From a virus (Duplodnaviria > Caudoviricetes): DNA of 64,000 nucleotides. A program made the position numbers and the translations under genes. Under the pieces are notes generated by a model, which saw only the letters and a program-made list of their open reading frames with translations, was not told the origin of the DNA and did no database searches. Positions 26,116-53,803 of the stretch are shown piece after piece. How positions within the stretch are numbered: the first letter of the stretch is position 1; the number at the start of each line of letters is the position of its first letter. The DNA is taken from positions 1 through 64,000 of the IMG/VR virus record IMGVR_UViG_3300027563_000005; one strand, written 5' to 3'.

Positions 26116-26768
26116 AATTCTTGCGGTTCTGGCAATACCGTGATGGCAGATGCTGTTGATGAAGTAGGTGTTCCAGCTATAGTCCCTGCAACAGTAAATG
26201 ATGTTGGGGTAGCTGCGGTAACAGTAAATACTCCATTATATGCTGCAAATGTTGCTCCAGATATGCTAACTTTATTTCCAACCGCAAAACTATTTTTACC
26301 AGTATATGTTGTTACTGCGCTGGCGTATGATATTGCAGTTATACTTGAATTTTTAAATACCCCGCCTGTTCTTAAATTTCTTTTTGTAACGGTAAAGGTG
26401 CAAGAGGTAAATGACATCATCATTGTTTTCTCTCTTGAAGCCACTCCATTTGGAGAAACCTTTACATTAAATGCACCTTGTCCAGCAGTTGATTCATAAA
26501 ACTCTTTAATGTTCATAGCTCCCCAAGCCCCATCTACTGTCATAGAGGCATAGGTTGGTAAGCCTGTCCAGCTGACCGAGAGCATGTCTTTGTCAGCAAT
26601 AAATATTTTTCTTAATGTTCCATTTGACATTCTCTGGGTTTTTTCAATTCTCTGTATATCTAATGTGGCGCTTGCTCTATTGTGTTCACTTAATGGCTGC
26701 CAGACTGCAGGGGTAACTGATGAGTTTTCAAATGTTATAAGGGATCCAAGCGGAAGTGTCATTGCCAT
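26082..26768 (-). CDS. distal-tail-like minor tail protein with inserted beta-rich domain
   Basis: First gene after tape measure; RMSNGTLRK and terminal WDVSIALEEV; insert GNKVSISGATFAAYNGVFTVT. Confidence 0.65.
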   Translation of the reverse strand: MAMTLPLGSLITFENSSVTPAVWQPLSEHNRASATLDIQRIEKTQRMSNGTLRKIFIADKDMLSVSWTGLPTYASMTVDGAWGAMNIKEFYESTAGQGAFNVKVSPNGVASREKTMMMSFTSCTFTVTKRNLRTGGVFKNSSITAISYASAVTTYTGKNSFAVGNKVSISGATFAAYNGVFTVTAATPTSFTVAGTIAGTPTSSTASAITVLPEPQEFWDVSIALEEV

Positions 26769-29700
26769 TATTTAGCTCCTACAGTAAATGATGGGCCAGC
26801 CATTTTAGCGTTACGTGAATCAAGGCTCTTAATTGCTGTAATTGTTTTCTGAGTTACCATGCTAGACAATTGCTCCAAGTTTCCATCATATCCATTAATA
26901 TTATTTGTAATATTATATACGCCTCCACCCATTGTAGCATTATTAGCGTTTGGATTAAATGGGTTCATGTTAGCAGGAACTACTGCTTCATTCTTATGAA
27001 GCATGGCAAGCATATCAGCTGGTACGTTATTTATTCCAGTTTTTAATTGAGGTATGCCATATGTAGATCCTATGCCATTACCACTATATTCAAGAATTTT
27101 CTTAAAACCAGCAACTAATTTTTCTGGGTCCAGCATCGCTAGAACATTGTGAAGTTCTGCCCCTGGATTTACCTGCATTCCTCCAGTGTGAAGTATTGAA
27201 TCAAGCTTTGATCTAATTAAAGCCTCTGCAGTTTCAGTTCCCTGGCTAAAAGCTTGTGCTCTTGCATCGGAAGCAGTGCTACCAATCTTTCTTAATTCGG
27301 ATCCACCTTCTTGCAAAAGGAATTCAAATGCTTCTCTATGTTTTCCAGCTTTTAATAATGTCTTTATATAAGTTCTCAAGAATTTAGGATTTGATATAGA
27401 TAGTGCAGGTATTCCATGTCTAATATCTAAAGGCTTGGCAGATTTTATTCTTAAGGCTAACTCAAATAAACTAGACAATGGGTTGGTTTCTAAATTTTTC
27501 TGTCTATAAGCTTTTCCAACGCTCTGGCTGGATGTAGTGAAGAGGTCTAAGCCAAACCAGTTTTTAGCTGGGTTGATTGCTTGCCCTTTAAATAATTTGC
27601 CAGCCTCACCTACTGGTCCAGAACTTAAAACTCTATTTGCTATCTCTGACAGTGCGCCTCCATGGAAAGAGGTTGTTCCTAATGCGTCTTGAATTGAAGA
27701 CATTGGTAGTCCTGGGGGGAATACTCCAATTACATCATCACTGGCATTTTTTACCATAAAGTCTGTAAATTTTTTACCAAAGAATCTGTTAACCATAAGT
27801 TTTGATACGATTGGGTTTGATTTTACAGCTTTGCTCTTAAGGAACTTTATAATTCGGTCTTCTATATTTTTTACTTTTGCTCCAACAGCGCTTCCATAGT
27901 GATACCTTCCTCTTCCATGAACTATTGGATTAAAATCATACATACCTCTATTTAGCTGACCTAAGATGTCATACAACGTACCATCTCTCTCGCTCAAAAA
28001 GTCGCTGGTCTTTGGATGCTGGGGGTCAGTGCCTTTTCTTACCCAACCACTTCCATAATCATTAGGTTCATATCCAGCTTCGTCTAATATTTTAATAAGC
28101 GGTGCTTCATAGTCTTTTCTTGCTTTTAATTGTTTTGGATCTAGTAGTAAGTCTGTCTGTGCTTGACCAGACTTTCTTCCGTACTGATAGCCATGTTTTA
28201 AAGTTTCGTTTTCAAGTTTATTCGGAAGGCGTAGTTCTTTTATTCTGGCTGGGATTCCTGTAACGCCACTCTTAATCTTAGAAAGCAGTCCCTTTGCCTT
28301 AGCAAGTATTCCCTTAGCGGCAAAAGGAATTTTTCCTAAATCATTTTTTAATCCAAATCCTGGGTATCCTACGTTCCAATTTGTTACAATGCCATCTTCT
28401 GTTTTATAGCCAGAGTATCCTCTTTTGCGAAGGTAATTAGCGAAATCGTCACTTATGTATGTCGGCTGAGAGACTCCAAATTTATTGGCATAGCGTAATT
28501 TTTCCGCTGCCATTTCTGGGCCATCTGTTATTGCGCCTTTGCCAAATGCAGTTTTAAGCCAAGCGAGAGGAGAGAGGCTAAGCTTGTGTGCGTTAGTTGA
28601 AAATTGATCACTTGCATATGTTGTGCTATCAAGGGCACCGTAGGTACCAGGTCCATAAGTATGCATTGCATCTGTTCGTCTTCCTATGTTAGGAGTTAGA
28701 GCATCTGGTGAATTATGTGCAAAGTGCGTCCAGGCTTTTGCATCCTTTACCCTTTGTACTATTTTACTTATATGAGGAGCTATTTTATTTCCAGCAAATC
28801 CAAATGGTACTGACAGTCCTGCTGTTAATGCAACATTTTGTGCGGACTTAGAGAAGCTCATATTCTTTAATTCTTTATTGGCATTAAATCCCTTAACTCC
28901 AGACTGAGTTCCGCCCTTTACTCCATACTGAGATCCGTCTTTAATTAGGCCAGCCAGTCCTTCAACTAGCCCTATTCCAACTCCTGCAAGGCCTCCTGGC
29001 CCCCCAAATGTTAATCCAGAAAGACCACCTTGCGCCGTGTTGAATGCGACTCTACCTAGTGCTCTACCCCATTTAGATAGCCCAGATGCATTTTCATTTG
29101 CACCCCATTTTAATGAAAGTCTTTTTTCAATTTCTTCCATTGATTGCCAGATTGCAGCAGAGCCCATAATCTGTGGCATCTTTTTAAATCCAGACTTAAC
29201 CCATCCTCCAAAACCAAATTTCTTTATTCCGCCTAGTGGGTGATTTTTTCCAAACCCAGTAAAGAATGGTGCGAATTGTCCTGCAGTTGGATTATTTATA
29301 TTTAATTTTGTTCCAATAAATCCATCTTGTATAGCCTTCTGTATCCCTTCGTCAGTAAACTTTGCTCCATACATACTTCCTGGATATCCATACTGACCCA
29401 TTTGTGATGGATTAAGAAACCCTTTACTTTTAAGTATGGCAAGAAAAGCTTTAACCCCTAGCTTTGGCTTATAAACATTAGGTCCATATTTTGGCTGCCC
29501 AGCCTGATACATTGGATTTGCTGCAAAGTGTGTGAAGTTTCCTAGTGTCTGTTCCTTGCCAGCTTGGTAAGACATTGGATCTAGGAGATCATCAACTAAA
29601 TTTGGGTTGGGTGAATTATGAGTTCCTCTCTTCATTAACTTTAATGCTTCACGAACTTGAGGATTCATAAGTCCTTTTATTAATTTAGGAATTGATGAAA

Positions 29701-32700
29701 CGCCCTTGGCTATCGGTCCGCCTGCAAACGTTGATCCTATGCTTGTGTAGTCGTTCCATTTTCCTTCGCCTGCATATATATTAGTCGCAGACTGCTGAAG
29801 GTATTTGCCAAAAAGTTCATATAATATTGGGCCGCCAGGATTCATATGTTTCATAGCTGGTGTCATTGTATTAGAGAATGAATGCACAAGATTAGACCAA
29901 CCAGATCTCTTGCTTGGATCTGAAACTTCTCCTGGTTCTAAGAACTTAAGCCAATTGGTGCCTCCAGAATTTCCAGTATCTGAAGTGTTACCAAGATCCA
30001 TTCCTTGCTCTTCACGATATTGATCTACGCTCTTATACTTACTCTTAGTCTGTGGCAGATTTCTTCCGTGACGATGAGGCCCAACTGATCCACCTGTGTG
30101 GAATCCAATAGCTTTTTTAATTTTCTTAAATAGCTTACCCCAGTTAATAGTTGACTGCATAGATCCGCCAGAAACTAATGTTCCATTAGTACCAATCAAT
30201 TGGCCATTTGTGCCAAGAATTTCTCCTCCACCTTCAAGTTTACCTTTACTTAAAAAGTATTCATGTTTTTCGGGAACATACTCTGGATAGATTGTTTTAT
30301 ATTTATCAGGCAGGAATAATTCTGCTCTTCTGTTTTTGGCTCTGTTCTCAGCAGTTGTATTTGGAACAAGAGGTCTGTACTCCCCGTATCCCACTGGCGT
30401 AAATGCTGTACCAGGAACAAACTTTGACATATATTCTGCAATAGCATTTGCTCTATTTTGTGAAAGGATCTTATTGTCTTTTCCTTTACCTACAGAGTCT
30501 GTGTGTCCTTGAACAACTATTGATGCCAGCTTATGTTTAATAAGATCTTTAGCGATTGCCTGAAGTTCTAGTCTTTGTTCTTTATTTAATGTGTAAGAGT
30601 TTGTAGCAAAATTTGCTGTGATCGGCGGAACTTCAATTTTAATAACCTGCTTATTAGCATCTTGCCATGCTTCTATTGGGCCCATCAATTTTCCGCCTCG
30701 ATGATTTACGTCTACAGTGGTTGATCCATTTCCAAATGAACTAGTGTGTGTAGATAAAGGAGTTGGCTTTATAGGTCCACCCCCTGCATATTTACCAGCA
30801 TTTAGTGCATCAAAATGATCTACTCCATACTTAGCTACGGAGTCTGCCTTAATTACATATTCGCCATTTGATAAGTAGGCTGGAATAGAATCAGATGTTG
30901 CAGTTCCTGCTCCTCTAATGTATCCGCCATCTGCTTTGTTGTATGGGTCGGTTATTTCCGTGATCTGGCCTTTGTCACCCATCTTGTATACAAATATTTT
31001 TCCTTCGCCATCAGTTAATGAGAAAAATTGTCCAGGCAAAATTCCTCTTTCTACTGCAATGTCCTTAACTTTTTGTCTAGTTCCTAACTTGCCAAAACCA
31101 CCAATACCAGACCAATCTGCCAGAGTTGTTTTGCTTATAGTGTTTGTTCCGACACCAGCTTTTCCTAAATCATAAGGAGCATCTTTTGTTCCAGATCCTT
31201 TTCCACCAATTTCAAACTTTTTGCCATCGACATAGATGCTAACATTTCCTTTAACATCTATAGTGCTCATTGCGCCTAATTTATTTTGAAGTCCATCTGT
31301 AAGGGCCTTTGCTAGGTCAAGATCTTTTAATCCATTAAGTTTAATTCCTGCATCTTTGGCGGCAGATGCAACAGCGGCAAGCATTGTTTCAGATTGCTTG
31401 CCTGCTTTCCACTGTGCTCTTTCTTGTTCTGGCTGCTTTAATAATTCAATCTCCCAGTTTAACATTGCAGTATTAACTGCGCTGATTGCGCTTTCTTGAT
31501 TAGTAATTGTCTTAGAAAGGTCTCCTAATTTTTCACCTGCAAGCGCTGCTTTATCTGCTATACCCTGCTGCTTGCCTTGAATTGCTTCAATTAGTTTTTG
31601 CAGCGGTAAGTTCTTTAAAATATTTGAGTCTTCAAGAGATTTCTTTTGTGAATTATATTGAAGTTCGCTTTGGTACCCTTGGATATCTAGGCTTGCTTGC
31701 TGTGCACCAGCTATGTTTCCAGTTGCAAGCGCTGCATCATATTCTGCCTGCTTCTTTGCAATTTCTCTACCAATATCGCCTTCTTGTTTTGCAGCATCTA
31801 GAGCCTTTAATCTTGACTCGGTTAGCTTGTTGTTAGCATCTATTTGTTTTTGGATAGAGTTTATCTTATCTCTATCTGATATTTGCTGTGCAACTGATTG
31901 GCCTTTTGCTGCTTTTTCATACGCTGCTTGTAGTTTTTTATTCGCATCTAATGCTTTATATTGCTTTTCTAGCGCACCACCAGGAGCTCTATTTGCAGCC
32001 TCTATTGATTTGCCTAAAGCTATTTGCAGGTTGTACAAGTCATTTGTCTGTTGAGCATTTAGCGCTCTAAGGTCTCCTGTGTATCCCTTAACTTGAATTC
32101 TTGTTTTTTGCCATAGAGACAAAGCAGTTTCTTGCTCATTAGCAATTTGTCTAATGGCTGGGTCTATCTTTGCCATTTCATCTACAACTTCTTCAGTTAA
32201 ATATACTTGATTTTGTACTTTAGAATTAATAGCATCGATAGCAGCTTGTTCTTGATCAAGCATTATTTGTTTTTCGTCACCTGTTGAAAGATAGGTTCCA
32301 TCTTTGTTAGCCTGTTTACGTGCTTCTTTTAATGCCTTTGCCTGCCTAGCTTCTACATCAGTAGATAATGCCATCATGGCTGTATTGAGTTGGTTTGCCT
32401 GCTCTGTTGCATCACGATTGGTTGCCATTGCAGTAGTTAAGCTATCTATTGCGCTAGCTGCAGCTGAGGCTGTATCTTTTATATCATTAAATCCTTTTGA
32501 ACTGATTGTATAAGCTGCTGCATTTGGAGCAAAGTCTGAAGCCGCATACATTGTGTATATCTTTTTAGCTGCATCTTCTGCAGACATTCCCATAGCAATT
32601 AGCTGCTCTTTGAGTCTTATAGCCAAAGCTTTCTGATCTTCTGCATTGTCTCCAGTTTGATTGATAAGGGCAACCTGATCAGAATAGTTTTCTTTAACTT

Positions 32701-35700
32701 CTTTTTTCAATTTCTTGTATTCTTCAATTGTAATCTTTAAAGGAGTGCCAGATCCCTTCATGCTTTCATAAAGAAGAGTATTTTTTTCTCTTAATGCTTT
32801 TGCATTATTAATTGCTTCTTTAATCTTGTCATTAAAGTTTGTAAACTTAAGTCCTGCTTTTTGTGCAGCCTCGGCTGTCATTCCATATCCTAAAGCATTT
32901 AATCTAAGAGCTTCCTTGTGAGCCTGCCATTTATCCCAGGCAAACTTTACTACTGCTGCGCTACTGCCGAGTGCAAGATTAAATCTTGTAAATATGCTTA
33001 GTGAGTGTCCAAGTGCTTTGCTTAAAAGATTTGAGCTTCCTGTAAGCTTGCTTAACATTGTTCCGTATTTAGTTAACTGCGGTACACCAGTAACTTTATT
33101 AACTCCTACTGCACCAATTGGAGTTGTAGCTTTAGGGAACATGTTGCTAATTCCTTTGCCACCGCCCTTTGGCATCATGTTACCCATTAATAAAAATGGA
33201 AGGAAGGATCCCATTGTGGTAATTGCGTTTCCAGTAGTTCCGCCAACCTTTTCACCAGCATACTTTGAACCTTCGCTTAAACCCATAATTAAAAGCAATT
33301 GTTTAAGCATTGGAATGAGGCCGCCTGGATTAAACCCGTTAATAGGTCCGCCAGCCTTATATCCATTTGGAATTATGCCGCCAGCATTTCTTGGAACAAA
33401 TAGCTCTGGCCCCTTTTCTCCAACAATGTATGGCTGGCCCGCATTAACTGGCCCACCCATTTCTCTTTTTTCTATTCCAAATACTAACTGCTTTAAAGTT
33501 TCTGTTAATGGGGTGTCTTTTTTAGATTCCCAGTTTGCAAACTTTTTTCTAAGAATTTCTCTATCTATAGCAGAAAGAACTTTTCTTCCTTCTGGTGCAG
33601 ACAATGTTGAGGAGGCCGCAGATCTTATTACAGAATCCATAACATCTGGCTCTACTGCTCTTATTAAGTGGCCCTGTGCGTTCTTGGTATATCCATATGG
33701 CATTTCTTTAGCAAGAGCTGCAGCAAATTTATCATATAGAATTTTTTGCGTTCTCTTTGTTAACCCAGTAGATCCAAAAAGTTTTTCAGCCATTCCTATC
33801 TGTAATGATGTTACTCCCCATGGGGCTGACTCATACGTGCTTGGTTTAGGTGCACCTGTTGGTCCAAATCCTGCGCCAATTCTATGCATTGCTTTGCTCT
33901 TTGTAATTGCTTCAAGCAATCCACCAAATCTAAATCCGTTTGCATCAGTTTTAAATGCATTGTCTGACAGGCTTGCTGAATGGCCAGTTTGTCTGCGCTT
34001 TAGTTCGTCTGCCGCTACCATCTTTGCTATAGCCGCTGGCGTCATTTGTTTTTCTGGTGACATCTGTAAACCAGAGTGAATTCCATGAAGCTCTTTCCAA
34101 TTTACGCCTCTTGCATCAGATAGCCTTTTAATCATTGCTTCATAAACAACTTTTTCTTCTGGGTTTAAATCAAATCTTGAAACTGTCTGCTTAAGCTTTG
34201 GTAAAGCGCTTTCAATCTCTTTAAGCATACGGCTATGATATTCATCAGCTGTCATTCCTTTTGGTATCTGGTGGGTTGACTCAGCAAAGAATTTCTTAGC
34301 TCCGCTGCCTTTTTTCCCTAATAGATTTATATAAGCCTGATCTTTTACTGAGGGCATAACTGATGCGTATCCTCTAAGCCCAGATGCTGCTGAGAATACT
34401 CCAGCTGGTCCTACGTCTGAAAGAACGTTTCCAGATAAATTACCTCTTGCCAAATCTTTGTCTCCACGTAAAGCTGATGCGACTAGCTGTCTAAAATATT
34501 CGTCTGTAGTAAATTTAGCATCTGTCGCTGCAACTTTGGGATCAAATTTAGACTCAAGTGCTAATAGCTTTCTTCTACCAGTTGGATCGGTAGGGTCTCT
34601 CATTACAACAACTTTTTGTGTTGGAGCATGTAATCCATGAACCTCACGAGCAATTTGTGTTGCTCTCATTTCTGCAACTGCTGCTCTCTCGTCTAACACT
34701 GGCTTTACAAATACTTTTTCATCGCCCTTCATATAAAGTCCGCCAACTCCTGGAACAGGGAAGCTACGGCCTGAAGTAGGAGAGAGAAGCTCTCCGTATT
34801 GAGTTACTGGAGTCTTTGCAAATCTAGAATCAGTAACTGCCTGGTCTGCTTTTTCCATGGCAACTCTTTTTGCTCTTTGTTCTTCAACTTGTTTTATAGT
34901 TTTAGGCATGCCAATAAAGAAAGGCTTACCGTATCCATATCTTCCTGGCTCTACAGTTCCTCCAGGAATAGATCCTCCAGCATTTCTTTTAAGAAATGCT
35001 CTTGACATCATTATGGCAAGTCTTTGTCTGCTTGCATTAAACGAGCTTCCGCTGAATGTTCCAAGCATTCCTTTTGCAAGGCCAGCCAACTTTGAATTTT
35101 CAATTGTAGTTAAGCCATTTCTGGATTTAACAAGTGTTTCTAATGCCGCAATAGGCTTTCCGTCTCTTGGCCCCATAGGCTGTAGAACTGAATTAAATAT
35201 TGATCTAAAAGACCTGTCTCCAACTCTTATATCTTTAAATGATTTAGAACCAATTACTTCTTTTTCAAACCATTTTTCAAATGTCATGGCTCCATTTTTA
35301 CCACCAAACACTCTACTATCTTTTTCAAGATTTCTAAGCATTTCATTAAACACTTTATTAAATTGAGTATTATTTCTTGGGTCTCCACCTAAACCTTGAG
35401 CTGCAGTCATCCATGGCTCAAATGGGTGTCTTCCTGCTGCAATTGCTTTTCTAAATTCTTTTGCTAGCTGTGGACCAGTCATTCCGCTGCCTACTGATCG
35501 AGTTTGTTGATTTGCATCTCTGCTCATCCAAATTGGAATTCCTCTACCAACACTTACAGTGTTAGCATATCCTCTTGTTGCCCGCACCCTTTTAAGATCA
35601 GCAGAAGATGCTTCAGATACGTGGCTTCTTTCAAAAGCTGTCTCTCCGCCAAATTCGTGCATACCGCTTCCAGATGTATTTCCAGGTCCGCCATTTAATT

Positions 35701-38644
35701 CATACATCAAAGGCATATTTCTTTTTGCAATATTCGCTGGTATGACTGCTTCTCCAGGTGTTAATACAACTGGGACTTGTCCGCCTTCTTGTGCATAATA
35801 AGACTTGCCTCCAAGTATATTTGTTATTAACGGAAGATGCTTTTCAGTTGCAGCTTTATTAATTACAAATGCGCCAGGCTCTGCTGTGGTGTGGTAGGTA
35901 TCCGTGTCACCAGTTCCTGGGACAAAGCCTCCTTTTGCAAACCTTGGCTTTGTTGTTTCAATGTTATATCCAGCACCTGATGTTCTTACGCCACCGAGAG
36001 CTCTTGCAATTCTATCAACCATTGCTTTTGTAGGTCCCTTATGAAACATTTCTTTCATATTAGACTTGCCTGTAGATGGATCTACCACTGGCTGTGATGT
36101 TAGTGGAACCGTTGTTAAGTTAGCTGTTCTGCCCATTGTTGCTGCAGTTAGTCTTGTTGTTTCTGCAAGCATTGCTTCTACGGTTGCATTTAATGAAATT
36201 ATTTTTGCTCTGGCCTGTTCTACCGTTATCTTGCTTGCTTGAACCTGCTGAACAATTGCTGCAGTTTCTTTTGCTGCAAGGTCTGTTATTTGGCTAAACT
36301 CTGGCAACAATGCCTTATACGAATCAGATAAGCTTGATGTAACAGTTCCTGTTGCCATAACTTCTGCTTTTAATATTTTAAGTTCTGCTTCAGATTGCAT
36401 AGCAATAGCAGCTGTCATAGCATGCCATTTTGCAGCCTCTGCTGCAACAATTCCTGTAGAGGTTCCACCTACTGATGTTAGGCCAGGTATCTTTGGAAGA
36501 TCTCCATCCATATAGGCCTGTGGGTTTCTACCAACTCTTATGTTTACTGGCTTTGCTCCTGGAACTGTTCCAAATATTGTTCCTTCTTGGGGATTGCCAG
36601 AAGGGATCAAATGAGACATATCTCTTGAATATGGTCTACCGACTAGGGGGTTATTTTTATCTACTACTCTGCCTGAACCGCCTGCTGCCATAATTACTCC
36701 GCCTGCAACTGTTGATACTGCTGGCTGAACTGCTACCTTTGCTGCATTTGCTTTTGTTTCTAAGTTTATAAAAGACTGAGCTAAAGTATTTACTGCATTA
36801 GATAAAACAATAGTTGCTTCTGTGTCTGAGTAGAATGAGGTGGCTAATCCTTTAGCTGCAGCATCTGCGGCTATGATCTCTGGCGTTAGAAGCCTGAACC
36901 CTTGACCGCCTTTTGCAAGTTGTCTTAAGTGGAATATTCCCTTAACTACGTAACCAATAAAGTTACCCATTACACCAGCCATCATAATTAGTGGACCAGC
37001 TATTGCAGTTAATCCTCCCAATACGTTTAGTAATGTTTTAACTGGCTCGGGAAGCTTTTGGAAAAACTTTATAATTGCGTCAACAACTTTTAAGACCTTT
37101 GTGCTTATTCTTAAAAATTGCTCTCCTGCTCCAGCAAGATCTGCTTGTACTGATGCCCAGGCTCTTTTAAATTGTCCAGAGGCTGACTCTGTCATCATCT
37201 TTAATTCTCGCTCTGAGATTGCTGCTAAATCTGTCACGCTTGCTTTCATTAAGTCCATAACCTGAAGTGTCTGTGATCCAGACTTTCCTAGGTTTTCAAA
37301 CAGAGCTGACATTCTTGCAAACTGGAACTTACCAAATAGTTGTTCAATTGCTCTAGATTTATCTAGCGGATTAAGATTGTCTAGTGCGGCCTGCAATGAT
37401 AATATTGTTGCAGTTAGATCACCAGCATTATCATTTACAATACCCTTTAGATCAATTCCAAATCCCATAAACTGCTCTGTTGCAACTTTAGTTGGGTTAA
37501 TGAGAGATGCCATTGCTGACTTGATTGCATTTGCGCCTTCAGAAGCATTTACTCCGCCTTCTTTCATTGCTGTGAGGTAAAGAGCTAAATCTTTTACATC
37601 TCCGCCAAGAGATTTAATTACGGGACCAGCTTTAGGAATTGCTTCAGTCAAATCTGCAAGGCTTGTTGATGTCTGGTTTTCAACTGCGTTAAGGAAGTCA
37701 ATCGATTGTGCTAGTTCATCAGTGCTCTGCTTAAAAGCATTTTGAATTGCAAGAGTTGCCTTCATTGCATCTTGTCTATCAACTTCACCAAGCACGGCAA
37801 GTCTTGTTGTTTGCTGTGTGGAGGCAATTAAATCATTGCCCTGTTGTCCTGTTGCTGCTAAGTCTGCAGCGAGTGCAATTGTTTCTTTATATGCAACACC
37901 ATAAGAGCCAGCAATTTCTCTAGCTGTTGCGGTAACGTCTTTTCTTACTTGTGCTAAATCTGCAGATGAAGTTGCGGCAAGACCACCATAAACCTTTGTT
38001 AGTCTTACTAACTCTGCATCTGCTTCTCTAAATGCTTTTTGTGCTGCCGCTCCAAACATAACTAGCGGGACAGTTAGTCCTACTGTTAGCTGGCGTCCCG
38101 CCCACTGTGTATTTTTACCCCAGTTAATAAGTCCTGTTGATCCATCAAGCATGACCTTATTCATGATTGCAGCTTCTTGTCTAGCAATCGCCATCTTGTT
38201 TTTTATTTCATCAAGACCTTTTGCAACCATTACGTTATATTGCATATGGCCTTGTGCGTTTTTACCCACAGGCTGTACTATTGCTTGCTGAAGCATTACT
38301 TGCTGCTTAGCAAGATCTCTAATTAATGAGCTTGTTTTCTTTGTATGGCCGCTCCAAGCATTATAATAATCGTTGAGCTTGAGGCGACCTCTATCTAAGT
38401 TCTTACCGAACTTGTCTACGTCTGAAGATAGTGATACAAAGTGTTGAGAGAACTGGCCTGTTGATGTAAGCGTTGTAGCAAACGACTTGTTCATCACTGC
38501 AATTTGGTTTGCAAGCTTTGCGTTTGTTCCCGCTGTTGTTTCTTGTAACTTTACGAGTTGGGCAGTAACCGCAGCTAGTTGAGCTCTTAAGCTCGTGAAG
38601 TCTGCGTGGGCGGTAATATTGGTCGTTATTATATTATCTGCCAT
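26768..38644 (-). CDS. tape measure protein (3958 aa) with embedded cargo domains
   Basis: N-terminal TP901-type TMP core (GRQLTVGLTVPL, LNAVENQT, ASEGANAIKS), follows tail chaperones; contains OmpA-like, kinase-like and ART-like segments separated by xxGG motifs. Confidence 0.92.
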   Translation of the reverse strand: MADNIITTNITAHADFTSLRAQLAAVTAQLVKLQETTAGTNAKLANQIAVMNKSFATTLTSTGQFSQHFVSLSSDVDKFGKNLDRGRLKLNDYYNAWSGHTKKTSSLIRDLAKQQVMLQQAIVQPVGKNAQGHMQYNVMVAKGLDEIKNKMAIARQEAAIMNKVMLDGSTGLINWGKNTQWAGRQLTVGLTVPLVMFGAAAQKAFREADAELVRLTKVYGGLAATSSADLAQVRKDVTATAREIAGSYGVAYKETIALAADLAATGQQGNDLIASTQQTTRLAVLGEVDRQDAMKATLAIQNAFKQSTDELAQSIDFLNAVENQTSTSLADLTEAIPKAGPVIKSLGGDVKDLALYLTAMKEGGVNASEGANAIKSAMASLINPTKVATEQFMGFGIDLKGIVNDNAGDLTATILSLQAALDNLNPLDKSRAIEQLFGKFQFARMSALFENLGKSGSQTLQVMDLMKASVTDLAAISERELKMMTESASGQFKRAWASVQADLAGAGEQFLRISTKVLKVVDAIIKFFQKLPEPVKTLLNVLGGLTAIAGPLIMMAGVMGNFIGYVVKGIFHLRQLAKGGQGFRLLTPEIIAADAAAKGLATSFYSDTEATIVLSNAVNTLAQSFINLETKANAAKVAVQPAVSTVAGGVIMAAGGSGRVVDKNNPLVGRPYSRDMSHLIPSGNPQEGTIFGTVPGAKPVNIRVGRNPQAYMDGDLPKIPGLTSVGGTSTGIVAAEAAKWHAMTAAIAMQSEAELKILKAEVMATGTVTSSLSDSYKALLPEFSQITDLAAKETAAIVQQVQASKITVEQARAKIISLNATVEAMLAETTRLTAATMGRTANLTTVPLTSQPVVDPSTGKSNMKEMFHKGPTKAMVDRIARALGGVRTSGAGYNIETTKPRFAKGGFVPGTGDTDTYHTTAEPGAFVINKAATEKHLPLITNILGGKSYYAQEGGQVPVVLTPGEAVIPANIAKRNMPLMYELNGGPGNTSGSGMHEFGGETAFERSHVSEASSADLKRVRATRGYANTVSVGRGIPIWMSRDANQQTRSVGSGMTGPQLAKEFRKAIAAGRHPFEPWMTAAQGLGGDPRNNTQFNKVFNEMLRNLEKDSRVFGGKNGAMTFEKWFEKEVIGSKSFKDIRVGDRSFRSIFNSVLQPMGPRDGKPIAALETLVKSRNGLTTIENSKLAGLAKGMLGTFSGSSFNASRQRLAIMMSRAFLKRNAGGSIPGGTVEPGRYGYGKPFFIGMPKTIKQVEEQRAKRVAMEKADQAVTDSRFAKTPVTQYGELLSPTSGRSFPVPGVGGLYMKGDEKVFVKPVLDERAAVAEMRATQIAREVHGLHAPTQKVVVMRDPTDPTGRRKLLALESKFDPKVAATDAKFTTDEYFRQLVASALRGDKDLARGNLSGNVLSDVGPAGVFSAASGLRGYASVMPSVKDQAYINLLGKKGSGAKKFFAESTHQIPKGMTADEYHSRMLKEIESALPKLKQTVSRFDLNPEEKVVYEAMIKRLSDARGVNWKELHGIHSGLQMSPEKQMTPAAIAKMVAADELKRRQTGHSASLSDNAFKTDANGFRFGGLLEAITKSKAMHRIGAGFGPTGAPKPSTYESAPWGVTSLQIGMAEKLFGSTGLTKRTQKILYDKFAAALAKEMPYGYTKNAQGHLIRAVEPDVMDSVIRSAASSTLSAPEGRKVLSAIDREILRKKFANWESKKDTPLTETLKQLVFGIEKREMGGPVNAGQPYIVGEKGPELFVPRNAGGIIPNGYKAGGPINGFNPGGLIPMLKQLLLIMGLSEGSKYAGEKVGGTTGNAITTMGSFLPFLLMGNMMPKGGGKGISNMFPKATTPIGAVGVNKVTGVPQLTKYGTMLSKLTGSSNLLSKALGHSLSIFTRFNLALGSSAAVVKFAWDKWQAHKEALRLNALGYGMTAEAAQKAGLKFTNFNDKIKEAINNAKALREKNTLLYESMKGSGTPLKITIEEYKKLKKEVKENYSDQVALINQTGDNAEDQKALAIRLKEQLIAMGMSAEDAAKKIYTMYAASDFAPNAAAYTISSKGFNDIKDTASAAASAIDSLTTAMATNRDATEQANQLNTAMMALSTDVEARQAKALKEARKQANKDGTYLSTGDEKQIMLDQEQAAIDAINSKVQNQVYLTEEVVDEMAKIDPAIRQIANEQETALSLWQKTRIQVKGYTGDLRALNAQQTNDLYNLQIALGKSIEAANRAPGGALEKQYKALDANKKLQAAYEKAAKGQSVAQQISDRDKINSIQKQIDANNKLTESRLKALDAAKQEGDIGREIAKKQAEYDAALATGNIAGAQQASLDIQGYQSELQYNSQKKSLEDSNILKNLPLQKLIEAIQGKQQGIADKAALAGEKLGDLSKTITNQESAISAVNTAMLNWEIELLKQPEQERAQWKAGKQSETMLAAVASAAKDAGIKLNGLKDLDLAKALTDGLQNKLGAMSTIDVKGNVSIYVDGKKFEIGGKGSGTKDAPYDLGKAGVGTNTISKTTLADWSGIGGFGKLGTRQKVKDIAVERGILPGQFFSLTDGEGKIFVYKMGDKGQITEITDPYNKADGGYIRGAGTATSDSIPAYLSNGEYVIKADSVAKYGVDHFDALNAGKYAGGGPIKPTPLSTHTSSFGNGSTTVDVNHRGGKLMGPIEAWQDANKQVIKIEVPPITANFATNSYTLNKEQRLELQAIAKDLIKHKLASIVVQGHTDSVGKGKDNKILSQNRANAIAEYMSKFVPGTAFTPVGYGEYRPLVPNTTAENRAKNRRAELFLPDKYKTIYPEYVPEKHEYFLSKGKLEGGGEILGTNGQLIGTNGTLVSGGSMQSTINWGKLFKKIKKAIGFHTGGSVGPHRHGRNLPQTKSKYKSVDQYREEQGMDLGNTSDTGNSGGTNWLKFLEPGEVSDPSKRSGWSNLVHSFSNTMTPAMKHMNPGGPILYELFGKYLQQSATNIYAGEGKWNDYTSIGSTFAGGPIAKGVSSIPKLIKGLMNPQVREALKLMKRGTHNSPNPNLVDDLLDPMSYQAGKEQTLGNFTHFAANPMYQAGQPKYGPNVYKPKLGVKAFLAILKSKGFLNPSQMGQYGYPGSMYGAKFTDEGIQKAIQDGFIGTKLNINNPTAGQFAPFFTGFGKNHPLGGIKKFGFGGWVKSGFKKMPQIMGSAAIWQSMEEIEKRLSLKWGANENASGLSKWGRALGRVAFNTAQGGLSGLTFGGPGGLAGVGIGLVEGLAGLIKDGSQYGVKGGTQSGVKGFNANKELKNMSFSKSAQNVALTAGLSVPFGFAGNKIAPHISKIVQRVKDAKAWTHFAHNSPDALTPNIGRRTDAMHTYGPGTYGALDSTTYASDQFSTNAHKLSLSPLAWLKTAFGKGAITDGPEMAAEKLRYANKFGVSQPTYISDDFANYLRKRGYSGYKTEDGIVTNWNVGYPGFGLKNDLGKIPFAAKGILAKAKGLLSKIKSGVTGIPARIKELRLPNKLENETLKHGYQYGRKSGQAQTDLLLDPKQLKARKDYEAPLIKILDEAGYEPNDYGSGWVRKGTDPQHPKTSDFLSERDGTLYDILGQLNRGMYDFNPIVHGRGRYHYGSAVGAKVKNIEDRIIKFLKSKAVKSNPIVSKLMVNRFFGKKFTDFMVKNASDDVIGVFPPGLPMSSIQDALGTTSFHGGALSEIANRVLSSGPVGEAGKLFKGQAINPAKNWFGLDLFTTSSQSVGKAYRQKNLETNPLSSLFELALRIKSAKPLDIRHGIPALSISNPKFLRTYIKTLLKAGKHREAFEFLLQEGGSELRKIGSTASDARAQAFSQGTETAEALIRSKLDSILHTGGMQVNPGAELHNVLAMLDPEKLVAGFKKILEYSGNGIGSTYGIPQLKTGINNVPADMLAMLHKNEAVVPANMNPFNPNANNATMGGGVYNITNNINGYDGNLEQLSSMVTQKTITAIKSLDSRNAKMAGPSFTVGAK

Positions 38645-38653
38645 ATATATATG

Positions 38654-39028
38654 TTACTCTATAGAGTATCCTAATCCCGCTCCGACACCGAATCCAGCTT
38701 CCGCTGCTAAGCCACCTTGTAATGAAACAACATCGTCTGCTGATGCATTAATACCTAGTGCTCTTCTTCTAATGTCTTCGAAGGATGATCCCTCCTTATT
38801 TTCATTACTGCTTTCATTTAACTCAACGCCTTGTATTAAAGCTAAGAACTTTCTTTTCTCTTCTTCAGTTTTTTGCATTGATTTAAAAGTCTGGACCATC
38901 TCTGGCATCGAAAGACTATCTTCTAATTCTTCGTAATTTTTCCAATTACCTAGTAGAAAGACTTCCCCTTCTAAAGCGGCTAAATCTAGTTCTGTCCAGC
39001 CAGTACCGTTGCCGCTAGAAGGTTTGGG
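38654..39028 (-). CDS. tail assembly chaperone, -1 frameshift extension
   Basis: The -1 frame is open from the slippery site (PKPSSGNGTGWTELDLAALEGEVFLLGNWKNYEELEDSLSMPE...) into the 84-aa ORF at 38654-38908. Confidence 0.8.
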   Translation of the reverse strand, partial: PKPSSGNGTGWTELDLAALEGEVFLLGNWKNYEELEDSLSMPEMVQTFKSMQKTEEEKRKFLALIQGVELNESSNENKEGSSFEDIRRRALGINASADDVVSLQGGLAAEAGFGVGAGLGYSIE

Positions 39029-39318
39029 TCGTCCATCTTAATTCCACCGCATACTTCAAGAATGCGATTGATTGTTGGAACGTCAAGTGTGTCTTCAAAT
39101 GCGTCAATGTCTTTAACTAGCTCTGGTAGTTGCTTTTCTAAAGCCACTGCACACGCTTCAATTAAAATTGTTAGTGTCTCGTCTTCTGACGTTACTTCTG
39201 CTGTCTTTTGAATGACTACCATAAACTTGCGAAGCTCTTTAATTGTTAAAGGCTTAAGCTTAACGGTTGCGCCATTTTGTAGTTGAATCTCTTCAACGTC
39301 GTATACTGTAGTTGCCAA
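38986..39318 (-). CDS. tail assembly chaperone
   Basis: Between tail tube and tape measure genes; GGAGG RBS; TTG start. Confidence 0.85.
   Translation of the reverse strand: MATTVYDVEEIQLQNGATVKLKPLTIKELRKFMVVIQKTAEVTSEDETLTILIEACAVALEKQLPELVKDIDAFEDTLDVPTINRILEVCGGIKMDDPNLLAATVLAGQN
39022..39028 (-). other. programmed -1 ribosomal frameshift site (C CCA AAC)
   Basis: Canonical X XXY YYZ heptamer, in the correct phase near the 3' end of the chaperone gene. Confidence 0.8.
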
Positions 39319-39428: not shown

Positions 39429-40127
39429 TTATGCTACTAGGACACGGTCAACAATAACGCCGTATTCCTTGCCTGCCTTTGCTTCTACTGGAAGCAAACG
39501 GAAGGTTACTGGGAATGTTGTTGCTGCGTTACGTGATAGTGAGAACTGTGACTGTTGTACAGAAAGAACACGACGAGCATAATATACACGCTCTGCCTTT
39601 GTTGCAGATTCTGTAGGTGCCTGTCCAACTGCTACTAGCTGACGCTCTGTTGGTGCAATACCAAGAGCTCCTGCTTCCATACCAATTGTAGATGTCTTTG
39701 AGTCTGTCGTTCCTGCTACTGTTGGTGTTCCTGACTGTCCGAATACTGCAAGAACGTTCTCAAGAGTACCTTCTGCAAGCTCTGTTGCAATCATAACTTC
39801 CATTGACTCTTTGAAAAGCTTTGCTGAGTCAAGAAGCTGATCTACTGTTACTGAACCGTATGATGGGTTGTAAGTAATCTGAAGACCGTTGTTTGTAAAT
39901 CCTACGTTTCTCCACTTTGCTGATGCTCCTGCTGCGTTTGCATTTAGAGTATCTGTGTATGAAACTGTTGCTGGAATTGCTGGTGTAGCTGCTGTATTTT
40001 TTGTAACAAAATTTACACCGTCGGTTGAACCTGGCTCCATGTCATCCTTGTAGCCTGCTGATGTTGAATCAAGTGCTGACAAGAATAGTGGAGAAGCTCC
40101 AACTAGAATATTTTTGGCTGATGCCAT
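39429..40127 (-). CDS. major tail tube protein
   Basis: NILVGA...VGFTNNGL...VDQLLD...T.LAEGTLEN...FPVTFRLLP; GGAGG RBS before ATG at 40127. Confidence 0.85.
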   Translation of the reverse strand: MASAKNILVGASPLFLSALDSTSAGYKDDMEPGSTDGVNFVTKNTAATPAIPATVSYTDTLNANAAGASAKWRNVGFTNNGLQITYNPSYGSVTVDQLLDSAKLFKESMEVMIATELAEGTLENVLAVFGQSGTPTVAGTTDSKTSTIGMEAGALGIAPTERQLVAVGQAPTESATKAERVYYARRVLSVQQSQFSLSRNAATTFPVTFRLLPVEAKAGKEYGVIVDRVLVA

Positions 40128-40245
40128 TTGTATTACCTCCATTAAATAAATATATATATTGACTTACTTTTAAATCTAAATCAAAGCTGGCTAGGCTCTC
40201 TTTTTCCTCTTGCCTAATTTTACTGGATAACTATCCTAAAAGCAA

Positions 40246-43440: not shown

Positions 43441-44490
43441 TTAAGAAGCAACCTTAACGTTCTTTACAACGACCCAAGCGTCTGCCTGCTCGATTTGAAC
43501 GCCAACACGAGTATACATTGTGTACTCAATTGTGTCCTTACGTGGCTGGAAGAAACGGTAAACAGTTACATCGCGCTTGATACCAATAACTACGTTATTT
43601 GGGAATGTCAAGTGGACGTCTCCGTGTGAACCTGATGGGCTTGCGTATGTACCTGTCTGTGTCTCAGGAAGCAATGGAACTTCAACGATTGGAATACCAA
43701 ATGCGTATGGAGCTACATATCCTGCTGGACCTCCAAGAACAGGAACATCACCACGGATAATGCCAGAGGCAATATCTTGTGGAGTAACGTTCTGGATGTT
43801 CTGTGAGTTAGAGAACAAGTAATCTTGGATCAAGTTTGATCCAGAAAGGAAGCGAAGGTCTGTACGACGTTGCTTGTACTTACGTGGCATAGCCTTTAGT
43901 GCTGAGTTAAATACGTTACGGGAAATTCCCGCACCTGCTGCATCTACTACGCGACCATGTGTCTTTGCCTTCTTAACTGCACCGTCAAATGACTTGTACA
44001 GCGCATCGGTTGAAAGTGATGTATCACCGTTAAGAATAAGATCTTCGATGTCATTTCCAGCCTGTGTTGCCATCATACGTGCAATATGATCTTCAAGATC
44101 TGCACCTTCGATGTTGTCTTCTAGAGACTCAGTTGAAAGTTCCCAGTCCATGCGGAGCTTCTTTGTTGTTAGAGAAATTTTTGAGAAAGTAACACCCTGG
44201 TTTATAGCTGTGTTTTCGCCTTCGGATGCAAGCTTTACAAGCTTCTCTCCTACTGACATACGATCAATTTCTGTTGTGTCGGATTTCATACGGACCGTAC
44301 GTGCAACTTTACCAATTACGGTAGCATCGAACATATAGTCCAAGAATCGTGCTGATTGTTCTGGGTTTAGAAGTCCACCGTTGCCATTTTCTGAAGCAAC
44401 ATGAACGCCTGAACCACCTGTTGAGGAACCGAATCCAGTTGATACTGTTGTACCAGCTGCTGCGGCCTTTTCTAATAATTCATTACTCAT
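43441..44490 (-). CDS. major capsid protein (HK97 fold)
   Basis: GGLLNPEQSARF, ELSTESLEDNIEG, DIEDLILNGD; follows protease/scaffold, followed by a terminator. Confidence 0.93.
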   Translation of the reverse strand: MSNELLEKAAAAGTTVSTGFGSSTGGSGVHVASENGNGGLLNPEQSARFLDYMFDATVIGKVARTVRMKSDTTEIDRMSVGEKLVKLASEGENTAINQGVTFSKISLTTKKLRMDWELSTESLEDNIEGADLEDHIARMMATQAGNDIEDLILNGDTSLSTDALYKSFDGAVKKAKTHGRVVDAAGAGISRNVFNSALKAMPRKYKQRRTDLRFLSGSNLIQDYLFSNSQNIQNVTPQDIASGIIRGDVPVLGGPAGYVAPYAFGIPIVEVPLLPETQTGTYASPSGSHGDVHLTFPNNVVIGIKRDVTVYRFFQPRKDTIEYTMYTRVGVQIEQADAWVVVKNVKVAS

Positions 44491-44511: not shown

Positions 44512-45051
44512 TTAGTTAAAGATTTCATTTACGGAACCGAGGAAAGCTCCAGACCATTTTGATTTTGATTTAGTAAAAACCTCAGACCCGCCAAGGTCAG
44601 AGGACTTCTTGATTGCGGTATCGCCTTCTACGGCATCTACCTGCTTTTGAACACCTTCAATGGTGCCCTTTATTTCTGTCACAGCAGCACTAAGTGCGCT
44701 GTGCTTTTCTGCCAACTCAGAAATTCTATCATCTACGCTTTTGCTGAAAGCTTCAACAGATGTTTTAATCTCTGTGACCTGTGCAGCATTCGCTTCTGTA
44801 GCCTTTGTGAGTGTCTCTGCGAAAAAGCCTTTTAGATCGCCTAACATCTTTGCAAAATCAGGTTCATCAACCATGACCTCAGCATTATCGAGTTCGGCTG
44901 CTTTTTCAACGGAGTCGGCAGGAGCTGTATCTTCTGCTGTTTCTTCAACAATTACATCTGTAATTGGGGCTTCTACAACATCGACAGACTTTTCAATAAT
45001 TGTTTCTGCTTCTACGGCTTCGACAACTACATCATTTGTTACGTCTGACAT
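44512..45051 (-). CDS. probable nested scaffolding protein (internal in-frame start)
   Basis: GAAGGAGGT strong RBS precedes in-frame ATG (MSDVTNDVV) at 45051. Confidence 0.6.
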   Translation of the reverse strand: MSDVTNDVVVEAVEAETIIEKSVDVVEAPITDVIVEETAEDTAPADSVEKAAELDNAEVMVDEPDFAKMLGDLKGFFAETLTKATEANAAQVTEIKTSVEAFSKSVDDRISELAEKHSALSAAVTEIKGTIEGVQKQVDAVEGDTAIKKSSDLGGSEVFTKSKSKWSGAFLGSVNEIFN

Positions 45052-45837
45052 CTCATTACCTCCTTCTACGTTTGCCTGTTTTGCTAATTGTGTTTCAGGC
45101 AACGGTAATCTTGACTTCTTAAATGAAGCAAGAATCTTATCTATTTCTTTTGACTTATTTATATCTGAACTTTCTACCCAGCCTATTAGCGAAGCTGGCT
45201 TTCCAGATATTGGTGAATCAAAAGTTTTTTCTGTGGACATGAAAACTGAGTCGCTGTCTTCGCAATAAAAAATATTTTCTGTTACTACATTTGCAGCAAG
45301 GCCTTTGTAAATCATTTGTCCGTTAACTTTTTCTATTGACAAAATATTACATAGCTCGTTTGCTGGTGAATCAACAATTGAAAGTTCAACTAAATCGTAG
45401 TCCTTGATAAATCTAACCGCTTCTCCCGTTGCTTTGTTAACTTCGTTGTCTGACTCTTTAATTTTTCCGCCAATTGAAAAACCAGAAAGAGTGCCATCAA
45501 GAACTTTTTCCCAAGTATCTTGTGCACCCTTTGAAATGTATGAAGTTACATAAACTCCATTGTAAAAAGTTTGAGACTTTTGATCGTAATATGTTTCTGG
45601 CTTAAATGAAACAACTTTACCTACTGCATTTGACTGATGCATCTCACGAAGATTTCCTCTGAAGTTTTCAAAAGCTTTTACGCTTGCTTCTGCCGTGACT
45701 ACATCGCCTGTCTGGTCAACATTATCTAATGTTGCAAAACCAGATACAGTTCTATTTTCTCGATTGACCTTAGTAAACGGAATCGACAAATGTAGCTTGT
45801 CGCCATTACTAGACCAATGGCCTTTTTCAATGTTCAT
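44512..45837 (-). CDS. prohead protease fused to scaffold-like domain
   Basis: REMH, GFSIGG, ELSIVDSPAN (HK97 protease family); acidic coiled-coil C-terminal half. Confidence 0.9.
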   Translation of the reverse strand: MNIEKGHWSSNGDKLHLSIPFTKVNRENRTVSGFATLDNVDQTGDVVTAEASVKAFENFRGNLREMHQSNAVGKVVSFKPETYYDQKSQTFYNGVYVTSYISKGAQDTWEKVLDGTLSGFSIGGKIKESDNEVNKATGEAVRFIKDYDLVELSIVDSPANELCNILSIEKVNGQMIYKGLAANVVTENIFYCEDSDSVFMSTEKTFDSPISGKPASLIGWVESSDINKSKEIDKILASFKKSRLPLPETQLAKQANVEGGNEMSDVTNDVVVEAVEAETIIEKSVDVVEAPITDVIVEETAEDTAPADSVEKAAELDNAEVMVDEPDFAKMLGDLKGFFAETLTKATEANAAQVTEIKTSVEAFSKSVDDRISELAEKHSALSAAVTEIKGTIEGVQKQVDAVEGDTAIKKSSDLGGSEVFTKSKSKWSGAFLGSVNEIFN

Positions 45838-49690: not shown

Positions 49691-50839
49691 CTACTTTTCT
49701 TCTAGTGATTTTACTCTTGCCGTAAGCTCTTGTACCGCTTTAATTAAAGGAGAAATAAACTCTTCATATCTTAATGCTTGTTGGCCTTCTGGATCTGCAA
49801 TATCGGATATAACCCATCCACCAAAATCTGAAACATTTGCTTGATCTAAAACAGATTTAACCTGCTGGGCAATTAATCCGTAGTGAGTTCTATTTCCATC
49901 AATTTTATTATACTTTACTGGCTCAAGACTATTTATAAAAGATAGCCCAAGGTCAGAAGGCAAAATATTTTCTTTTGTTCTTTGATCTGATATAACAGTA
50001 GCTGCTGAATTTAAATATATATTTTTCCAGCCTCTTGTTACGTTATCTGGGCCAGAGTTTATTGGTCCAAGTAAACCTAAACTAAAGCTGTTAGTTACAA
50101 ACGGATACCAAGAAGAGTTAACACCAGTAGACGAAGTGGCCGTGGCTACCAATGAAATTCTTGTTGCAATTGGATCTATGCTAGGAGATGGGCCTGTTGC
50201 GCCTGTTGCGCCAGGAGCGCCAGCAGCGCCAGGAGCGCCATCTGCGCCTCTTGGAATAGTAAAGTTTAAAACAACATCATTAGCTGTTCCAGAATTTGTT
50301 ACTGCAGCTTGGGAACCAGCAGCAGCTGTTGTGACTGTCGGGGATATTGCAATTGTTGCCGCAGGAAATCCCTGTAAGCCTCTTTCGCCAGTATCTCCCT
50401 TAGCTCCGTTTGTCCCATTTGTTCCTGGGGTTCCAGGTTCGCCTTTGTCACCTTTGGGAAGTATTAGGTTTAAAATTTGTGACGGAGAGGATCCAGTAAT
50501 TGTTGCAGATGCGCTTAATCCTGAATCTACTGTTCCTATTGATAAAATATTAGAGGGTCCTGGTCCGCCTAAAATTCCGTCTTGACCTCTTGGTATATTA
50601 AATGTCAAAGATTGTGTAGGTGATGTTCCGCTAATTGTTACTGAGGCACTCTGTCCAGCATTAAGTGTATTTGTTGCGGCTACGCTTAGTGTATTGGATG
50701 GACCCGTTAGGCCTTGTGGTCCAGGATTTGCTGCAATAAAAGCAGCGATGTCTGTTCCTAAAATACCAAGATCTCTAGGTACGTCGGGTGAGTCCGAGTA
50801 ACTTGGGAAACGCCATCCATTAACGCCTACTGTTGCCAT
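49691..50839 (-). CDS. collagen-like fibre protein with C-terminal intramolecular chaperone (peptidase S74-like)
   Basis: Gly-X-Y runs (GDKGEPGTPGTNGTNGAKGDTGERGLQG), repeated LxFxIPRG, SDQRTKENI...HYGLIAQQV...LRYEEFISPLIKAVQEL. Confidence 0.85.
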   Translation of the reverse strand: MATVGVNGWRFPSYSDSPDVPRDLGILGTDIAAFIAANPGPQGLTGPSNTLSVAATNTLNAGQSASVTISGTSPTQSLTFNIPRGQDGILGGPGPSNILSIGTVDSGLSASATITGSSPSQILNLILPKGDKGEPGTPGTNGTNGAKGDTGERGLQGFPAATIAISPTVTTAAAGSQAAVTNSGTANDVVLNFTIPRGADGAPGAAGAPGATGATGPSPSIDPIATRISLVATATSSTGVNSSWYPFVTNSFSLGLLGPINSGPDNVTRGWKNIYLNSAATVISDQRTKENILPSDLGLSFINSLEPVKYNKIDGNRTHYGLIAQQVKSVLDQANVSDFGGWVISDIADPEGQQALRYEEFISPLIKAVQELTARVKSLEEK

Positions 50840-53781: not shown

Positions 53782-53787
53782 ATTATT

Positions 53788-53796: not shown

Positions 53797-53803
53797 TTTC
53801 TAT

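Follow-up and report, generated by a model that had tools for sequence, protein, structure and literature searches.

A giant phage tape measure protein with a conserved scaffold and two exchangeable module slots bordered by Gly-Gly motifs

An open reading frame (ORF) on the minus strand of a 64,000-nucleotide stretch of viral DNA (Duplodnaviria; Caudoviricetes; positions 1 to 64,000 of IMG/VR record IMGVR_UViG_3300027563_000005, hereafter the window) encodes a giant tape measure protein (TMP) with two exchangeable slots, set in a scaffold (aa 1-1000, 1221-2622 and 3864-3958) that is conserved among relatives. The gene (26768..38644) runs for 11,877 bases without a break in frame, giving 3958 aa plus stop. 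Both module exchange and motifs at the module junctions are observed in this TMP family. An earlier note on this DNA, made from the letters alone, had described the protein as a series of cargo domains separated by xxGG motifs, and alignment of related TMPs confirms that it is modular, with modules swapped, gained and lost among relatives. We consider it probable, though well short of certain, that the protein is a mosaic carrier, its conserved scaffold bearing two exchange slots with Gly-Gly borders and its cargo being delivered at infection.

The 3958-aa protein is a TP901-type phage TMP encoded within the tail module of a siphovirus. It is identified as such by its matches to Pfam PhageMin_Tail (PF10145; aa 239-438; 90.8 bits vs a cut-off of 33.2) and TIGR01760 (aa 192-548; 100.6 bits vs 28.8), together with at least eight TMP PHROGs that match aa 1-846.

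Module exchange in two slots

Residue ranges of this protein (the query) are followed below by window positions, all on the minus strand. Slot 1 (aa 1001-1220; 34985..35644) holds a cassette with low predicted local distance difference test (pLDDT) scores and no Pfam match. Among the 118 relatives having both anchors of this slot, the inserts measure 220-310 aa and form seven clusters without mutual similarity. They lie between conserved borders, PGNTSGxGxxxGG on the left (second G in 98%) and NxGGx[IV]PGxFAQRLFG on the right (N 95%, GG 99%, P 95%, G 92%). One relative, P0007, differs from the query in slot 1 only (24% identity).

Slot 2 (aa 2623-3863; 27056..30778) is a multi-cassette cargo region. 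It contains an OmpA-type peptidoglycan-binding domain (PF00691; aa 2679-2772; 30329..30610), module S8b (aa 2977-3142; 29219..29716), the Gly-rich module S9 with a hydrophobic stretch at aa 3216-3234 (aa 3148-3296; 28757..29203), module S10, a paralogue of S8b (aa 3297-3445; 28310..28756), and module S11 (aa 3453-3858; 27071..28288). The equivalent stretch spans 3-1864 aa in 82 relatives, being at most 25 aa in 24, as measured between ...FAxGG and the C-terminal tail (1273 aa in the query by those anchors); the left border FAxGG is retained in 76-80%. P0005 is 92-100% identical to the query everywhere except aa 2853-3142 (2%) and is without aa 2856-3129. Its sequence there, FHKGG-HVGG-IPKFGFGG, reads as a vacant site with the flanking motifs of the query insert on either side, the missing cassette consisting of aa 2853-2976 plus S8b, between FH(T/K)GG and FGFGG. 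P0009-P0011 share 83-97% identity with the query up to the OmpA module and only 19-29% from S8 to S11. In P0088 and P0122 the scaffolds are 34-64% identical to the query, yet identity is 72-75% in S10 and 61-68% in S11, and the occurrence of such closer cassettes on diverged scaffolds shows that cassettes travel between lineages. S11 also sits mid-protein in relative P0123, and S9 is found at various positions in other giant TMPs.

The scaffold between and around the slots consists of two long blocks and a short tail. Block 1 begins with a TMP core of helical 'ruler' composition (aa 1-880; 36005..38644), containing the PhageMin_Tail match and a hydrophobic segment (aa 535-571), and closes with a junction cluster, J1, disordered by prediction (aa 895-1000; 35645..35962), in which FAKGG...GAFVI and AQEGG...GEAVI are followed by NGGPGNTSGSGMHEFGG. 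The normal TMP core had been placed by the earlier note in about the first 650 aa; the block conserved in relatives extends to aa 1000. Block 2 comprises an atypical protein-kinase-like domain conserved family-wide (aa 1256-1528; 34061..34879), a conserved helical module after FRFGG (aa 1576-1726; 33467..33919), the invariant motif REMGGPVNAGQPYIVGEKGPELFVPRNAGGIIPN with YKAGG and FNPGG (aa 1727-1776; 33317..33466) and, by composition, a second helical ruler region that is rich in Ala, Glu, Leu, Lys and Gln and poor in Gly and Pro (aa 1900-2470; 31235..32947). It ends in a small module followed by KADGG...SDSIPAYLSNGEYVI...YAGGG (aa 2482-2622; 30779..31201), which forms the left border of slot 2. 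PHROG profiles show the aa 1727-1776 element to be of the TMP-C-terminus type, here internal. The conserved C-terminal tail (GINNVPADMLAMLHKNEAVVPANMNPFNP...; aa 3864-3958; 26771..27055) is common to TMPs of many sizes. Composition analysis places hydrophobic segments at aa 535-571, 637-655 and 3216-3234, and finds more Gly, Pro and aromatic residues outside the two ruler-like stretches (aa 1-880 and 1900-2470).

Gly-Gly motifs at module junctions

All eleven xxGG motifs recognized in the earlier note are present in the ORF: FAKGG (aa 902), AQEGG (951), HEFGG (996), RNAGG (1220 and 1752), FRFGG (1571), REMGG (1727), YKAGG (1762), KADGG (2570), YAGGG (2618), FHTGG (2848) and FGFGG (3143). Enrichment of the bare GG dipeptide was considered and rejected, 52 copies being observed in the TMP against 42 expected from composition. 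The accompanying GE(A/Y)V(I/V) element is real: exact copies of [GN]E[AYFW]V[IV] lie at aa 964, 2594 and 3885, three or more copies occur in 0/2000 shuffles, and the element falls within 30 aa after three xxGG motifs (902, 951 and 2570). Its reported position near the C-terminus of ordinary TMPs is also borne out, at positions 1258-1304 of 1379 in phrog_23013 and 708-741 of 811 in phrog_1538; PHROG TMP profiles place a GEKGPE motif near the C-terminus of ordinary TMPs too. A chunked BLAST comparison of the TMP with itself gave no internal repeats at E<0.005, only short motif likeness.

Homology between the query and its relatives breaks recurrently at some of these motifs. Breakpoints were taken as the ends of high-scoring segment pairs (HSPs) against 119 relatives, a recurrent cluster requiring at least three supporting relatives. 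Those at aa 1000 (79 HSP ends; HEFG[G]), 1221 (87; R[N]AGG), 2480 (26; FEI[G]G) and 2625 (55; YAGGGP[I]) all lie 0-3 residues from a GG. A GG stands within three residues of 8 of the 22 recurrent clusters (chance 8.4%; binomial P=2.8e-4) and of four of the eight largest (n>=10; P=2.7e-3). In an all-vs-all comparison of 160 family members, 506 of 1801 right (28%) and 180 of 489 left (37%) strict breakpoints have a GG nearby against a background of 9.7%, an approximately three-fold enrichment, not a rule, for which breakpoints were tested in windows of 11 aa and the background in windows of 10 aa. The proposal that xxGG motifs are module junctions thus stands for the most heavily used junctions, which bear conserved xxGG, and does not extend to every xxGG. 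REMGG and AQEGG lie within invariant motifs, and at neither is there a breakpoint cluster with at least three supporting relatives.

Kinase-like and OmpA-type domains

The kinase-like module proposed in the earlier note is recovered at the level of fold by VIA-align, by Foldseek against pdb and by BFVD matches. A structure model of aa 895-1780 built from 35 sequences has a mean pLDDT of 51 and is confident over aa 1256-1528 alone, where pLDDT is 62-93 by 10-residue block. All 50 VIA-align rows are kinase-fold proteins by title, including CylM, KEOPS and NuA4, which we take to have a kinase-like fold. The best is CotH kinase (Z 11.4, rmsd (root-mean-square deviation) 4.0, 213 residues aligned), with CtkA at 10.6, MavQ at 9.8, PI4K IIalpha at 9.6 and HipA at 9.0. 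Foldseek against pdb returned only kinases among its matches, at weak E-values. The BFVD matches are phage PI3K/PI4K-like proteins (E 1.5e-6) and include large phage proteins, one named portal protein and two named ADP-ribosyltransferase (ART).

K1314, E1325, D1397, N1402 and D1410-x-G1412 are invariant in the 35 sequences. From spacing and secondary structure, used without superposition, they would represent the beta-3 Lys, the helix-C Glu, the catalytic Asp with an Asn five residues on, and the metal-binding Asp-x-Gly. The domain thus resembles the atypical kinases CotH, CtkA, PI4K type II and HipA both in fold (188-213 residues aligned, rmsd 4.0-4.5) and in the conserved Lys, Glu, Asp...Asn and Asp-x-Gly positions. 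It differs from them in sequence, with 9-13% identity and no Pfam or PDB sequence match. The model and alignment together show a bilobal, atypical kinase-like fold with conserved catalytic-type residues, present family-wide. At least 70% of the domain is covered by 135 distinct sequences in the analysed set, which makes it part of the scaffold and not slot cargo. The slot-2 region of relative P0016 has weak APH and ABC1 matches at aa 2092-2132 (16 bits, below cut-off) and may contain a second kinase-like cassette, distinct from the conserved domain.

The OmpA-like module is confirmed by PF00691, which matches aa 2679-2772 at 62.7 bits vs a cut-off of 27.2; NCBIfam OmpA/Pal/MotB-type models match the same residues. 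Beyond TMP and OmpA-type models, the NCBIfam scan of the TMP added nothing among the 25 families listed of 32. Pfam scans of ten TMP segments gave none over cut-off, and a PDB sequence search gave none for the C-terminal tail or J1.

C-terminal modules and ADP-ribosyltransferases

The earlier note had also counted three ART-like modules, a claim that profile searches did not confirm: aa 2850-3865 has no ART Pfam match at E<=10, and PF18760 (ART-PolyVal) has none in the whole contig at the same threshold. S8b and S10 are paralogous (hhalign probability 98.5%, E 2e-15, 125 columns), and S11 is unrelated to either by profile comparison. The model of aa 2850-3958 is of low confidence (mean pLDDT 46), with no Foldseek match below E 0.3. 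By language-model comparison, the nearest Atlas clusters carry ART-PolyVal, at weak scores of 0.85 (S10) and 0.79, below the 0.9 line of that tool. The sole true ART domain found is in P0207, a 370-aa fragment in which ADPrib_exo_Tox (25.4 bits vs a cut-off of 23.4) directly precedes KFADGG and the family C-terminal tail. None of S8b, S10 and S11 resembles it, hhalign of the C-terminal modules against the ART segment of P0207 giving probabilities below 6%.

Distribution of the family

The search for relatives was restricted to proteins of 2176-6927 aa. Among 2083 candidates scored, it yielded at least 853 giant TMPs of that size range at E<=0.001, all metagenomic; those bearing a name are TP901-family TMPs. 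In relatives P0122, P0123 and P0137, PhageMin_Tail is the only Pfam match. Relatives that are colinear over the full length, at 81-94% identity, were recovered from several sources, and an IMG/VR search returned 79 loci, many of which hold a long match in one frame. The DNA of the gene has no match in GenBank phage records, tblastn of aa 1-2967 against those records matched only aa 6-669 at about 31-34% identity, and the kinase-like module and S10 have no match in cultured phages at E<=1.

The C-terminal region is rarer. A scan of aa 2850-3958 against 1.84 billion representatives returned only 225 proteins, with the slot-2 modules, the C-terminal tail aside, confined to other giant TMPs or their fragments; aa 2850-3865 matched only two loci in IMG/VR. 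Split or stand-alone module genes were also considered, and no evidence for them was found. The kinase-like domain occurs in 14 short proteins (194-620 aa), 11 on contigs below 2.2 kb and three on contigs of 5-11 kb, which look like fragments at contig edges, and short matches to aa 2850-3958 begin at internal Met residues of the TMP sequence.

Genomic context

The source virus record is linear (76,006 bases; GC content about 38%) and has no terminal repeat. Given this, a CheckV completeness of 71% and relatives' contigs that reach about 120 kb, the phage genome is probably larger than 100 kb, with an unseen portion that could include a protease. ORF order and PHROG matches define a siphovirus-type late module with portal (45891-47480), head maturation protease (44512-45837), capsid (43441-44490) and an Ig-bearing tail protein (39429-40142). 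Two small ORFs directly upstream of the TMP gene on the minus strand (38986-39318 and 38654-38908) are candidate tail chaperones by position only. After the TMP gene come a 228-aa ORF, placed by ORF order, and an 1189-aa minor-tail (Tal-like) protein, placed by ORF order and PHROG matches. The TMP gene thus lies downstream of the major tail protein gene, between the chaperone-like pair and the distal-tail/Tal-like genes.

Several other features of the contig were recorded. Nine ORFs in a run, each 198-284 aa long, occupy 50857-57142 (-) of the window. Those at 50857-53781 and 55180-55869, five in all, are paralogous to one another, while 53804-54514 and 54504-55214 are a pair at 43% identity. 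Matches to 2OG-FeII_Oxy_3 in 6 of 57 contig ORFs and to DUF6065 in two probably fall in this run. Fibre-like proteins with many tail-fibre PHROG matches lie at 49691-50839 (-) and 58649-61948 (-). Collagen, Peptidase_S74 and Mtd_N (the major tropism determinant N-terminal domain) each match two ORFs in the contig, and the Mtd_N matches could indicate the target of a diversity-generating retroelement. The replication module (8862-12137 (-) and L082) includes a 1091-aa DNA polymerase (phrog_405) together with RecA, DnaB-type helicase, Toprim primase and ribonucleotide reductase domains. The Pfam scan of 57 ORFs lists 25 of the 32 families that it detected, and no integrase family is one of these 25.

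A proposed mosaic carrier and its rivals

The explanation judged probable at the outset holds that, in an uncultured lineage of siphoviruses, the TMP has expanded into a mosaic cargo carrier. Relatives exchange, gain and lose whole modules in slots aa 1001-1220 and 2623-3863, at borders formed by conserved Gly-Gly motifs like those found once, close to the C-terminus, in ordinary TMPs. We infer that the motifs are module boundaries, forming flexible, functionally required ends of scaffold blocks, and that recombinants joined there survive. The cargo would consist of the family-wide kinase-like domain in the scaffold and, in slot 2, the OmpA-type domain, the Gly-rich hydrophobic module, the duplicated domain and a 400-aa module. 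By analogy with T5 and lambda, the TMP would leave the tail tip-first and its C-terminal slot-2 modules would reach the envelope first. The OmpA-like domain might then anchor on peptidoglycan and hydrophobic parts insert into the membrane. Because it needs ATP, the kinase-like domain would be a pre-made effector working in the cytoplasm. Delivery, site of action and enzymatic activity of the modules are proposed on this analogy, as is injection of effectors before phage gene expression.

Several observations weigh against this explanation. Family-wide, no GG stands near 72% of right and 63% of left strict breakpoints, and 14 of the 22 query clusters lie away from GG, including those at aa 3864 (32 HSP ends), 3896 (23), 2608 (13) and 3300 (12), where GG is absent within three residues, as it is at the recurrent breakpoint at aa 3032. 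BLAST alignments tend to run into conserved GG, which sharpens the apparent coincidence, and HSP ends count sequences, not independent events, because relatives share ancestry. The kinase-like region has no Pfam family at E<=10 over aa 1222-1575, and a profile of aa 895-1780 has no PDB sequence match. Outside the kinase domain, both structure models are of low quality (mean pLDDT 51 and 46), and globular cargo is therefore shown for two modules only, the OmpA-like and the kinase-like.

Three rival explanations can be set against the mosaic carrier, the nearest to the earlier note being a polyprotein whose xxGG motifs are cut by a phage or host protease, at tail assembly or after ejection, freeing the modules. 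Adenovirus and African swine fever virus structural polyproteins are cut after Gly-Gly, and the motifs in this TMP are strongly conserved at module borders. Processing is also known among TMPs, namely of lambda gpH and of T5 pb2 after R1127 (PMC10038345, in part), though in T5 the cut comes after Arg and not after GG. A Pfam scan of the 57 other ORFs gave 32 families, and the 25 listed include no GG-specific cysteine protease, Peptidase_S74 being the only peptidase family there and the head maturation protease ORF lying outside the scan; Pfam and NCBIfam find no peptidase domain within the TMP. Across the eleven motifs, different residues stand four positions ahead of the presumed cut (F, A, H, R, F, R, Y, K, Y, F and F), and some xxGG lie inside longer invariant motifs of structural look. 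On this balance we regard cleavage at the motifs as unlikely.

A purely structural role, in which the extra segments serve length measurement and envelope crossing as anchor, channel or spacer, no module is an enzyme with host targets and the kinase-like domain works as a scaffold or pseudo-enzyme, would suit the two long ruler-like regions, the OmpA-like and hydrophobic modules and the fact that about half of each model is low-confidence or helical, and OmpA alone among the modules matches a Pfam family. Such a role is hard to square with a slot 2 that ranges from 3 to 1864 aa, given a fixed envelope-spanning device, with kinase Lys, Glu, Asp...Asn and Asp-x-Gly positions that are invariant in 35 sequences, or with the ART domain on a related C-terminal fragment, and we think it rather improbable. 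An artefact, whether from chimeric assembly or from several genes being read through as a single ORF, can be given hardly any weight: no evidence supporting it was found, the frame is single and uninterrupted, colinear full-length relatives come from several sources, and many of the IMG/VR loci hold a long one-frame match.

A joint reading that adds cleavage to the mosaic carrier is possible but doubtful. In this combination, the TMP would bear a polymorphic effector system whose slots are restocked at Gly-Gly motifs and whose modules are freed by cleavage. Its cargo of kinases, ADP-ribosyltransferases, wall-binding and new-fold modules would act in the periplasm and cytoplasm before phage expression, in an arms race with host defences. 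Were the joint reading true, tail length would no longer follow TMP length.

Relation to known systems and significance

Elements of the mosaic carrier have counterparts in other phages. The lambda TMP leaves the tail tip-first at infection, and the TMP of mycobacteriophage TM4 has embedded motifs and an enzyme. The T5 TMP occupies the tail tube with the C-terminal end at the tip; it is cleaved during assembly and expelled tip-first, inserting hydrophobic segments in the membrane and releasing a wall-acting C-terminal piece; the C-terminal enzyme of pb2 is expelled into the periplasm, with processing between the hydrophobic stretch and the enzyme (PMC10038345, in part). As in pb2 so described, one TMP here combines a ruler, hydrophobic stretches of the membrane-inserting kind and a C-terminal wall-directed domain. 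However, the wall-directed part is an OmpA-type binding domain in place of a hydrolase, and there are about ten modules, exchanged among relatives, in place of one. The 5002-aa TMP of Thermus phage P23-45 brings an RNA polymerase into the cell before phage gene expression (PMC10770324, in part), and is likewise a giant TMP carrying an enzyme, here a putative one, that acts in the cytoplasm. In P23-45 the enzyme is N-terminal and an RNA polymerase, and no cassette slots or junction motifs are mentioned in the portion of that account considered here (PMC10770324).

Two further comparisons concern cargo and its exchange. Polymorphic toxin systems (Rhs, CdiA and MuF) have a conserved carrier with exchangeable modules after a short junction motif, and in this TMP too a conserved carrier bears modules that begin at a short conserved motif. 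They differ in that exchange here is internal and in two slots, not confined to the C-terminus; immunity genes are neither expected nor seen, and most cassettes have no known toxin fold. Polyvalent proteins are very large, virion-delivered proteins with disparate domains, including kinases and ARTs, and signs of cassette recombination (Iyer et al. 2017; PMC5512222, in part). The query may resemble them in that it combines kinase-like and OmpA-like domains in one protein that would be delivered to the host, and differs in that no peptidase family was found in the TMP, zincin-like peptidases being the commonest domain in the polyvalent proteins as covered there (PMC5512222); the word 'tape' is absent from the main text of Iyer et al. 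(2017). In the literature surveyed, subscription papers and supplements aside, no account of a cassette-exchanging or kinase-bearing TMP was found. We describe this TMP as a putative tape-measure-borne 'polyvalent' cargo carrier; the reading of its motifs as module junctions is supported, and the polyprotein reading is speculative.

TMPs are usually regarded as rulers with at most one wall-degrading domain. In the reading preferred here, a large family of uncultured phages would use the TMP as an exchangeable cargo rack, with a cargo region that ranges from nothing to 1864 residues. Three questions become testable in this family: whether tail length tracks TMP length, how folded domains would travel in or through the tail tube, and whether phages inject pre-made host-modifying enzymes via the TMP. 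The cassettes would constitute a pool of lineage-restricted domains without known folds, and the junction motifs may provide a simple rule for spotting such cassettes in metagenomes.

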